Shown: positions 5,957 to 17,531, counted from the first letter of the stretch. The stretch is 64,000 nt of DNA from Escherichia coli (GCF_041886205.1 NZ_CP169029.1), one strand, 5' to 3'. Numbers and translations are program-made. Notes: a model not told the origin generated them from the sequence alone.

Positions 5957-8900
5957 TTAGTCAAACGGCGGTGGGGCCAGCACTTCACGATTACCGTTGT
6001 GCCCCTGTTCGCTGACAATCCCCTGCGCTTCCATCTGTTCGATAATACGCGCTGCACGGTTATAACCAATGCGGAACTGACGCTGTACGCCTGAAATTGA
6101 CGCTTTGCGTTTTTCAGTGACAAACTGCACCGCCTGATCGAACAACGGATCCAGTTCTTCAGCGCCATCGAAACCGCCCGCGCCACCTTCGCTTTCGCTG
6201 TCGGAGGTGATGCCATCAATATACTGTGGGCGACCACGCGCTTTCCAGTCCTGCACTACGGCATGAACTTCCTGATCGCGAACAAAAGCACCATGGACAC
6301 GTACCGGTAACGTGGAGTTCGGCCCAGAGTAGAGCATATCCCCCATACCCAGCAGTGATTCCGCACCAGCCTGATCAAGAATGGTACGTGAGTCAATCTT
6401 ACTGGATACGGTAAAGGCGATACGGGTCGGAATATTCGCTTTAATCAGACCAGTAATAACATCAACCGATGGACGCTGAGTTGCCAGTACGAGGTGGATA
6501 CCCGCGGCACGGGCTTTTTGCGCCAGACGTGCTATCAGCTCTTCCACTTTTTTACCTACCGTCATCATCAGGTCGGCAAATTCGTCCACCAACACCACAA
6601 TGTATGGTTCTTTTTTCAGCACCGGATGCTGGGCGTCCATACTGTCACCCGGCTTCCAGTACGGGTCTGGAATCGGACGCATCATGCGATCGGCTTCAGC
6701 AATTTTTTCGTTATAACCCGCCAGATTACGCACACCCAGCGCAGACATCAGTTTATACCGACGCTCCATCTCGTTAACACACCAGCGCAGCGCGTTGGCG
6801 GCATCTTTCATATCAGTAACGACTTCCGTTAACAGGTGCGGAATGCCTTCATACACCGAAAGCTCCAGCATTTTCGGGTCGATCATGATGAAACGCACAT
6901 CTTCTGGCTGTGCTTTATAAAGCATGCTCAGGATCATCGCGTTCACACCGACAGATTTACCGGAACCGGTAGTCCCCGCAACCAACAAGTGCGGCATTTT
7001 CGCCAGATCGGCAACCACCGGCTCACCGGCGATATCTTTACCCAGCACCACGGTTAATGGCGACGGATTATCGCGGAATTTGGCGTTATCCAAAACTTCG
7101 CGCAGATAAACGGTTTGTCGTTTTTTATTTGGTAACTCCAGACCTACATAGGGTTTGCCAGGAATAACTTCAACGACACGCACCGCCACCGTCGAAAGTG
7201 AACGGGCAAGGTCCCGTGACAAGTTAGAAATGCGCGCCGCTTTTACGCCAGGAGCCAGGTTAAGTTCAAAGCGAGTGATAACCGGCCCCGGAGAGTAATT
7301 GACGACATCGGCTTTAATACGGAAATCAGCCAGACGCGCTTCCACCAGACGAGCCATTTGTTCAAGCGCAAAGGTATCTACCGGCTCCACTTCGCTCGGC
7401 GGCGGTGTCAGCAAATCCAGAGAAGGCAGCGGCGTCGTCGGTTTATGCAACGGACGGCTGTCGCCATTACGCATCAACAGCGGATGAAGCAGGGTATCCT
7501 GCTGCTGCGGTGCAACCGGTTGTTGCGGCTGCTGATACTGCTGCTGCGGCGCAACTGGTTGTTGCGGCTGCTGATATTGCGGCTGTGGCGCAACCGGTTG
7601 TTGCGGCTGCTGATATTGTGGCTGCGGCGCAACCTGCTGTTGTGGCTGCTGATACTGCGGCTGCTGATATTGCTGCTGTGGCGCAACCGGCTGTTGTGGC
7701 TGCTGATACTGCTGCTGCGGTGCAACCGGTTGTTGCGGCTGCTGTACAGGTTCAACAATTGGCGTAAACAACGGTTCGTGTGGACCATCATCCAGCAACG
7801 CTTTCATTGGCGAAAATTCAAAATCATCCAGCGAGAACGGATTCGCCCCAGCCGGTTGTTCGCCGGAATAACGTTGTTGTTGAGTTTGCGCAAACTGACG
7901 AGCCAGTTCAGCCTCTGCCGCAGCATCTGCATCTTCTGCGTTTACGGGCACATCATGTTGATACTGTTCGCCATAGCGTTGCTGCTGTGTCTGGGCGAAC
8001 TGACGTGCCAGTTCATCCTGCTGCATCGCATCGATTTCATCATCGTTGTACTGATCGCCAGAATCGTACTGATTGCGCTGGGCTTCACGGGCTTTTTCTT
8101 CCGCCGCACGCTGTGAGGGCAGCTTAATACCGTAAGACGCCAGTTCACGACGAGTTGGCACGCGGATACGTTTCGGTCGTGGCAACTGCGGGCCAATCCC
8201 CTCTTTGACCTGCGGACGCGGTCCACCGCTATTTGCCAGACTGAAGACTGGCGCGGCAACGGTTGCGGCAGCCCCCGTCGCCAGTGTCGCTTTTTTCACG
8301 CCAGATGCCAGCGGAGAAACAGCGGCAGCGGTTTCTACTGGAGGTACTGCTGCAACAGAAGGTGCTTTCAGCGAAGATTTGATCGGTTCTGGTTCTTTAA
8401 CCGGTTCTGGAATCGGTTGATACCAGGCCGCAAGTTGTTCACGTTCACGGGCACGCTTCTCTTCCACTTCTTCAAAGTAGTAAAGCGGAGGACGCGCGGG
8501 TTTTGTCTCTTCTACAACGGGTTCAGGTTCCACAACAGGCTGCTGTTCAACAGGTTGCGGCTGTTGGTACAACGGTTCCTGAGCGGCTGGCTGCTGATAA
8601 GTTTGCTCAGTCTGGTATGTAGACTGTGGAGCAAAAGTGGATTGCTGCTCTTCGGCTTGCCAGGCGTTACCTGCCACCGGTTGTTCTGGCGCGGGGGCGT
8701 AATACGGTTGCTGAACAGGTTGTTCCGCCGCAGGAGCGTAGTAAGGTTGTTGCACAGGTTGTTCAGCTGCAGGCGCATAATACGGCTGCTGTGGCTGTAC
8801 AGGTTGTTGCAGCGGCTCATTATATTGCACTGCAGGCTGCGCATATTGTGGCTGCTGTGGGTAACCTTCCGGTGCAGGAGCAATAACCGGCTCTCCCGTT

Positions 8901-10000
8901 TGTGGACCCGGTACAGGCTGCCAGGCTACTGTAGGTTGCGAAGGTGGAACATCAACAGAGGCAACAGGCGGCGTATGAGTCACAGGTTCAACCGGCGCAG
9001 CCCAGCCTTGTGTCGCCGTGGTAGCAGCAGCTGCTACAGCGACAGGTTCGGTAATTGGCGCACCGTTTAATAATGGATCGTATTCGTCATATTCTGGCTG
9101 CGTTGCACGATTGCCCGAAAATAGGACGTCGTCCGGGTCGGCAGCCACACCGCGTGCAGTGTAGGTAATCTCTTCGTCATCATCCATCCGCTTACCGGAG
9201 AACAACGCAGCGTCTGTTTGCCGCCCCATCGGATTAATGAATTTTTCCGCCAACCGTTTACGACGCGCTAGCGCGCCGCGAAGAATACGGGCACGGCGTG
9301 ATTCATGCTGTTTGCCGTGGTTTTCATCTTCATACTCTTCGTCATCTTCATATTCATCTTCATCGACCCAGGTATCATCGCGACGGGTACGATTACTGGC
9401 GAAGGTGAGAATGTTTAAAATCCAGCCGCCGAGTTTTTCAGCAATGGTCACCCATGACCAACCGGTGAACAGCGTCAGGCCCGCAGCCCAAACGCAGAGC
9501 AGCGCAATAGTTCCCCCGCTACTGTGTAGCAGTGGTTGTAGCGTAGTACTTAGTAAGCTGCCAATGACGCCACCGGAGGCAAAATACCAGATATCGTCAG
9601 CGTTGATTGCCGCCAGACCACAGGAGGTAAGGATGAGCGCCAAAACGCCAATGATGCGTAGCGAAACGGCAAAATAATCAATGTATTCGTCGCTGGACTG
9701 ATGACGCCAGGCAAACCAACAACCGCCGACAATAATGACGGGAATGGTGTAAGCCATCACGCCAAAAATAAAGAACAGCGTATCTGCCAACCACGCACCG
9801 GGCATCCCACCTAAATTATGGATAGGTTCATGCCAGGCCGTTTGCGACCAGCTGGGGTCCGAAGGGTTAAAGCTTAGTAAGGCAGCCATCAACCAGACGG
9901 CAAACAGGACAATAAGGATCAGCAACGCCTCCAGAAGGCGGCGGCCGCTACTTAACTTTGTCAATGTGACTTCTTTGTCTTCAGTGTATTCCTGGCTCAA
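5957..10000 (-). CDS. ftsK: DNA translocase FtsK (membrane domain, Pro/Gln-rich linker, RecA-like motor, gamma domain)
   Basis: 1347-aa ORF; N-terminus [27 protein letters not shown]; Walker A GTTGSGKS; long PQ-rich linker encoded by tandem 39-bp repeats. Confidence 0.95.
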
Positions 10001-17252: not shown

Positions 17253-17340
17253 GGTGAGGTGTCCGAGTGGCTGAAGGAGCACGCCTGGAAAGTGTGTATA
17301 CGGCAACGTATCCGGGGTTCGAATCCCCGCCTCACCGCCA
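17253..17340 (+). tRNA. serW: tRNA-Ser (anticodon GGA), long variable arm, encoded CCA end
   Basis: GGTGAGGTGTCCGAGTGGCTGAAGGAGCACGCCTGGAAAGTGTGTATACGGCAACGTATCCGGGGTTCGAATCCCCGCCTCACCGCCA: class II tRNA cloverleaf with a GGA anticodon loop and T-arm GGTTCGAATCC. Confidence 0.95.
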
Positions 17341-17383: not shown

Positions 17384-17531
17384 CATTTTATCTGCCTGTA
17401 CGGCAGTGAACATGGTGGGCGGGTGGAGTATGTTACCAGTGAATTTCTAAGCTGCCTGTACGGCAGTGAACGCCAACTTTCACAGCCTTTGCAAGATTGT
17501 TCCTTTCTAAGCTGCCTGTACGGCAGTGAAC
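17384..17531 (-). CRISPR. Orphan type I-F CRISPR mini-array: 3 repeats, 2 spacers of 32 nt, no adjacent cas genes
   Basis: Minus-strand 28-nt repeat GTTCACTGCCGTACAGGCAGCTTAGAAA (the E. coli/Yersinia subtype I-F repeat) at 17504-17531 and 17444-17471, plus a degenerate terminal copy at 17384-17411. Spacers at 17472-17503 and 17412-17443 are exactly 32 nt each. Confidence 0.85.

Follow-up and report, generated by a model that had tools for sequence, protein, structure and literature searches.

Tandem repeats with a 39-bp unit have been described in both E. coli and Salmonella and are used as markers in strain typing. Locus ms06, a marker of the Shigella/E. coli MLVA scheme of Gorge et al. (2008), the primers and allele table of which are used here as given in PMC8215070, has a 39-bp unit, alleles of 2, 3 and 4 copies, amplicons of 301-379 bp and a Simpson index of 0.63 (PMC8215070). 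In the typing literature surveyed, the original paper of Gorge et al. (2008) aside, neither the host gene nor the unit structure of ms06 is given. Another E. coli locus, CVN001, has been named as an ftsK locus (PMC11773471), and the Salmonella locus STTR7/SENTR2 is a 39-bp VNTR of ftsK with about 9 copies (PMC2430564). When ftsK linker-repeat alleles differing by 84 bp were swapped in Salmonella Enteritidis, survival in egg white, the sole trait tested, was unchanged (PMC6137255). The linker of FtsK itself has been described as unstructured and Pro/Gln-rich, and its length differs by species; in E. coli it is about 650 residues long, against some 200 in Vibrio and some 125 in Pseudomonas (PMC5357621). 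As summarised in that paper from Bigot (2004) and Dubarry (2010), full FtsK activity requires the linker, and contacts of FtsZ, FtsQ, FtsL and FtsI with parts of it have been reported (Dubarry et al. 2010, via PMC5357621).

The window analysed here, i.e., the whole stretch of 64,000 nucleotides of Escherichia coli DNA (NZ_CP169029.1), contains a 39-nt repeat inside ftsK, with the following features:

5957-10000, minus strand: ftsK coding sequence, 1347 aa, TTG start (ORF list, Pfam and RefSeq).
8744-8782, minus strand: unit 1, class A, TATTATGCGCCTGCAGCTGAACAACCTGTGCAACAACCT, 13 residues, aa 407-419 (in-register reading).
8705-8743, minus strand: unit 2, class B, TACTACGCTCCTGCGGCGGAACAACCTGTTCAGCAACCG, aa 420-432 (in-register reading).
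8666-8704, minus strand: unit 3, class C, terminal and degenerate, TATTACGCCCCCGCGCCAGAACAACCGGTGGCAGGTAAC, aa 433-445 (in-register reading).
8679-8791, no strand assigned: extent of the repeat by Tandem Repeats Finder, with period 39, 2.9 copies, 78% matches, no indels and a score of 135.

Four Pfam domains were found in the 1347-aa ORF, namely FtsK_4TM (20-191), FtsK_alpha (858-958), FtsK_SpoIIIE (966-1179) and FtsK_gamma (1282-1342). All matches to the gene are annotated as ftsK ('DNA translocase FtsK') in RefSeq, and matches were present in 5,425 of the 5,426 complete E. coli genomes. The adjoining genes in the window are lrp and trxB, the same arrangement as in K-12. The repeat, at residues 407-445, falls between FtsK_4TM and FtsK_alpha and thus in the linker (FtsKL), where the original prediction had placed it. 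The linker (residues 192-857, 666 residues) consists of 16% Q and 14% P, and the proportion is higher at residues 340-500 around the block, with 22% P and 21% Q (P+Q 43%). No Pfam domain was found between residues 192 and 857, and the solved FtsK structures cover residues 822-1347 only. By composition, Pfam and structure coverage, the block is therefore situated in a Pro/Gln-rich segment free of a recognised folded domain, the unstructured state of the linker being taken from the literature. A different, short-period repeat (6/9/18 nt) at 9323-9364, also in ftsK on the minus strand, codes for an acidic run of 14 residues just past the membrane domain. Some 8-12 ftsK matches were on records labelled as plasmids, e.g., NZ_OZ547091.1 (262 kb), and these probably represent pieces of chromosome, or else chromids labelled wrongly in the assemblies.

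Other features of the window were recorded by Rfam matching. Two CRISPR-DR4 repeats on the minus strand, at 17444-17471 and 17504-17531, each score 50 bits (gathering score 35). They lie 32 nt apart and form a mini-array of two repeats and one spacer, about 100 nt from tRNA-Ser(GGA) at 17253-17340; this mini-array may resemble the I-F-type CRISPR remnant of E. coli. Two sRNAs were matched at full length on the plus strand, STnc130 at 2306-2440 (140 bits) and RybB at 60980-61058 (104 bits).

In codon register the whole array spans 8666-8782 on the minus strand and comprises three 39-nt units, corresponding to ftsK codons 407-445. Both this reading and Tandem Repeats Finder agree with the peptide YYAPA(A/P)EQPVQQP and the number of about three units that had been proposed; the proposed coordinates, 8680-8800, pointed to the right place, but their bounds were 10-20 nt off. 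The classes (A, B, G and C, where C is the degenerate terminal unit with an AGN end) were defined from four-unit alleles, in which the codons used are distinctive for each position; the window allele is A-B-C, without G. Pairwise identities among its three units are 31/39, 24/39 and 23/39 nt. Unit 1 is 2 nt off the class A reference unit, and unit 2 has the sequence of unit b in 5 of the 13 other alleles read (SCU-308, H10, H22, ST131 and S10). Units 1 and 2 encode an identical peptide of 13 residues and differ at 8 nt, all synonymous, which amounts to about 8 of 9 synonymous sites. The AGN-ending terminal unit, or a close variant of it, was present in every allele read, including the allele with one copy. 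The region around the block is 100% identical to that of strain LHM10-1. The window allele with its flanks (8400-9060) is rare, with at least 99% identity in 6-8 of 5,426 records, and its best matches are LHM10-1, from a pig, and wlxctx60, from an Asian black bear.

The block is the MLVA locus ms06 and is thus already known, because the published ms06 primers map on either side of it:

8562-8581, plus strand: ms06 MLVA primer site, TGTTGGTACAACGGCTCCTG, 1 mismatch (primer from PMC8215070, Table 1, mapped on the window).
8882-8901, minus strand: second ms06 primer site, AAACGGGAGAGCCGGTTATT, exact (primer from PMC8215070, mapped on the window).

Neither primer has a further site in the 64 kb, where chance would give 0. 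They are predicted to amplify a product of 340 bp (8562-8901), the 3-copy member of the published range of 301-379 bp. The 39-bp unit, the series of 301, 340 and 379 bp and the copy-number polymorphism of ms06 were all recovered at this block, and the Simpson index calculated from our three genome samples is about 0.66-0.67, as compared with the published 0.63.

Tandem repeats with a score of at least 80 were found at only two places in the window, the present block and a second block in the same gene:

7499-7744, minus strand: the other 39-bp ftsK repeat, block 1, which is ms07/CVN001 (Tandem Repeats Finder and primers).

The ms07 primers map at 7403-7422 and 7985-8004, and those of CVN001 (Lindstedt scheme) at 7398-7417 and 7839-7857. 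CVN001 was considered as a name for the ms06 block and was rejected, as its primers enclose block 1 (7398-7857). A kinship between the two blocks was also considered and rejected; the units of the ms06 block, in their best rotation against the block-1 consensus, gave an identity of 18-21/39, the level of the codon-shuffled null (20.3 +/- 1.6). In the 14 alleles read, 1-4 copies of the ms06 block combine freely with block-1 spans of 85, 90, 98 or 111 residues. This identity at the null level and the independent variation of the two blocks bear out the original prediction that the repeat belongs to a family distinct from that at 7498-7752. In the window, block 1 measures 90 residues between FTPIVEP and DTLLHP, while other strains have 85, 98 or 111 (in 13-residue steps), and it carries an extra partial unit of five residues, YQQPQ (15 nt), which is in frame and outside the 39-nt register. 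STTR7/SENTR2 of Salmonella is likewise apparently the counterpart of block 1 and not of ms06, as its copy number and the position of the 84-bp indel (codons 757-784; PMC6137255) indicate.

Copy number was surveyed in three systematic samples from the 5,426 complete E. coli genomes, each of 60 records taken at even steps down the match ranking. With the block and its flanks as the query, 17 records had 2 copies, 21 had 3, 21 had 4 and one had a single copy; 14 of the 21 four-copy rows were partly aligned, so that their number is inferred, and the two that were checked by sequence both had 4 copies. When the flanks only were used and the array size was measured from the span between them in each genome, the counts for 2, 3 and 4 copies were 18, 23 and 18 with 334 nt of flank and 19, 19 and 21 with 544 nt, with one other record in each sample. 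Thus 2, 3 and 4 copies make up about one third each in every sample and the 1-copy allele is rare; alleles with five or more units were not found in the about 175 E. coli genomes sampled. Arrays read directly contained 1 unit in strain 1409, 2 units in K-12 AB1157 and O157:H7, 3 units in the window, S10, FDAARGOS_497 and S1-ZIM-01-A, and 4 units in ST131, SCU-308, H10, NR3736, AF40 and EC571. The reading frame was kept in all 14 alleles read, with FtsK at full length (1316-1368 aa). The block had been proposed as a site of in-frame expansion or contraction, and this is what the multi-genome comparison revealed, with 1, 2, 3 or 4 units across E. coli genomes rather than the invariance that would have spoken against the proposal.

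All but one of the spans were whole multiples of 39 apart. The exception, strain H22 (NZ_CP120563.1), has two units and a 57-nt deletion at about ftsK codons 395-420, which removes VQPQQP together with the first unit and apparently arose between short direct repeats coding for QQP. Not all length changes at the block are therefore in the 39-nt register.

Further information on how the arrays changed was provided by hybrid units, which sit in shorter or rearranged alleles and whose mosaics join neighbouring classes. Unit d, found in K-12 and O157:H7, is an A/G mosaic with 0 mismatches, versus 2 for the best single parent. The corresponding values are 1 versus 3 for unit q (A/B), 2 versus 5 for unit p (B/G) and 2 versus 4 for unit r (C/G). 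Several independent events are needed to account for the alleles seen. As hybrid units occur at the junctions, the copy number most likely changes when units misalign in register, either by replication slippage or in unequal homologous exchange. The mechanism is read from the footprints left in the hybrid units, and slippage and RecA-dependent exchange would look alike in such sequences. Every in-register event would preserve the frame because 39 is 3 x 13, and each unit would add 13 residues to the tether between the membrane/divisome anchor and the C-terminal DNA motor, so that one unit gained or lost would shift the length of the linker by about 2%. The most likely role of the block is that of a length-variable spacer. 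Since the cell tolerates 1-5 units, copy number is most likely close to neutral and drifts slowly. By analogy, the Salmonella Enteritidis swap, which points to tolerance of length changes in the linker repeat, may be counted in favour of near-neutrality. All K-12 derivatives and O157:H7 genomes listed in the samples had 2 copies, which suggests that copy number is stable within clones, and with alleles stable within clones and differing between lineages the locus can work as a typing marker. Taken together, the block is very probably a protein-coding minisatellite (ms06) in the FtsK linker, a length-variable spacer with in-register turnover and near-neutral copy number.

To estimate how far the repeat extends beyond E. 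coli, one genome of each species was scanned with a degenerate DNA pattern encoding YYA[PT]A[AP]EQ. The pattern had 27 matches, 5 of them in Escherichia ftsK, i.e., in E. albertii, E. whittamii, two further Escherichia species and a divergent representative genome labelled 'E. coli', with arrays of 4, 5, 2, 2 and 4 units, respectively. The 22 other matches, in unrelated taxa, were set aside as chance matches from a hand-calculated expectation alone (about 35 matches for a 34-bit pattern over about 6e11 positions). Between species, the terminal unit could be matched and the first unit loosely so, and the inner units had no positional counterpart; the arrays have therefore turned over independently. 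In E. albertii, units have diverged at as many as 4-5 of their 13 residues. Searching at the protein level with the linker segment yielded only incomplete proteins, none longer than 400 aa and several from frameshifted assemblies (P0018, P0028, P0039), and is suited to showing the state in Salmonella and not to a taxonomic survey. The motif was absent from the homologous place of Salmonella FtsK, where both flanks align (partial sequences P0029 and P0038), and a single unit, YYASAPEQSV, was seen in a close relative (P0023, P0033). From the arrays of 2-5 copies in Escherichia and the absence in Salmonella, the array can be regarded as a feature of the genus Escherichia.

Other explanations of the block should also be considered. 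Some self-similarity is to be expected in a segment of which the surrounding 160 residues are 43% P+Q, and the periodicity could in principle be a chance product of this low complexity, or the copy differences could be artefacts of assembly. The linker codons were shuffled as the null for this very reason, the surrounding sequence being of low complexity (Pro/Gln). The best 78-nt stretch at lag 39 had 60/78 matches, but the shuffled linker gave a mean of 33.5 (sd 2.3) and a maximum of 44 at this lag in 2000 shuffles, none of which reached even 45/78; with the lag left free between 9 and 120, 300 shuffles gave at most 45. The 39-nt repeat is thus far beyond chance. The same exact 39-nt classes recur in finished genomes and amplicon sizes were determined independently by PCR (PMC8215070), which also argues against artefacts, and neither form of this explanation deserves any appreciable credence. 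An intragenic tandem repeat the copy number of which differs among strains could also be a contingency (phase-variable) locus that switches the state of FtsK by frequent changes in length. On the other hand, the unit is a multiple of three and all 14 alleles are in frame with a full-length FtsK, so that no on/off switching is seen, and the units are only 59-79% identical at the DNA level, which disfavours frequent slippage. The single copy number shared by the listed K-12 derivatives and O157:H7 genomes is an indirect indication against variation within clones. Moreover, ftsK is an essential division gene. A contingency function is accordingly very improbable.

The 13-residue unit could alternatively be a functional short linear motif whose copy number tunes avidity and is under selection. 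Its tyrosine pairs recur at 13-residue intervals amid Pro and Gln, and it might bind a partner in the divisome or mediate weak multivalent self-association of the linker. In agreement with this, units A and B are identical at 13/13 residues although their synonymous sites are saturated with differences, and comparisons among classes A, B and G give 5-7 synonymous versus 2-4 non-synonymous nt differences, with 10-12 of 13 residues identical. The motif has also been retained among Escherichia species through the turnover of the arrays, and parts of the linker are reported to interact with division proteins, as cited above. Against a pure spacer, YYAP[AV][AP]EQPVQQP is found again in other Escherichia species, where other codons encode it, and a peptide shared despite codon divergence suggests that sequence may matter and not only length. 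However, natural strains carry anywhere between 1 and 5 units, with similar frequencies of 2, 3 and 4, Salmonella FtsK is without the motif at the homologous place, the units of E. albertii have diverged to the extent noted, no interaction has been mapped to the unit residues in the literature surveyed, and thirteen codons offer very little material for a test of selection. An important role of the motif is disfavoured because it is absent from Salmonella and copy number is free, and we consider a functional motif under selection unlikely; that the unit is an Escherichia-specific motif, of which 1-5 copies tune the hold of the DNA motor at the septum, is quite unlikely. If it were true, the saturated synonymous divergence could result from selection that acts on the peptide or that favours scrambled codons, which would stabilise the array; between peptide constraint and array-stabilising scrambling, thirteen codons cannot decide. 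The retention of the peptide while its codons are scrambled nevertheless raises the question of a genus-specific motif in the FtsK linker.

Under the preferred explanation of a near-neutral coding minisatellite, the block has little significance beyond bookkeeping, as a slow in-frame length polymorphism of the linker that is used for typing E. coli and Shigella. A literature search for papers linking ftsK to a 39-bp tandem repeat found none; the present results place ms06 at ftsK codons 407-445 and make it possible to read its alleles straight from genomes. In addition, the internal unit structure, with four positional classes and their hybrids, records events of deletion and duplication and would allow finer typing than amplicon size.

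In comparison with the described systems, ms06 is the same locus as the block and nothing essential differs, although strain 1409, with 1 copy, and E. whittamii, with 5, fall outside its published range of 2-4. The ms07/CVN001 repeat and STTR7/SENTR2 resemble it in the 39-nt (13-aa) period, the P/Q-rich unit, the location in the ftsK linker, the in-frame polymorphism and the use in typing. However, ms07/CVN001 is situated at about aa 750-835, just before the motor, and has a different unit in about 5-9 copies, with 7 alleles versus 3 for ms06 in PMC8215070; the block 1 repeat is also found in Salmonella, whereas the ms06 block is not. The tolA repeat (CVN004/SENTR1) is similar as an in-frame coding minisatellite in a long flexible region of an E. 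coli envelope/division protein, polymorphic and used in typing, but it belongs to another gene and encodes another peptide, with a unit of 15 bp in E. coli (CVN004) or 45 bp (SENTR1).
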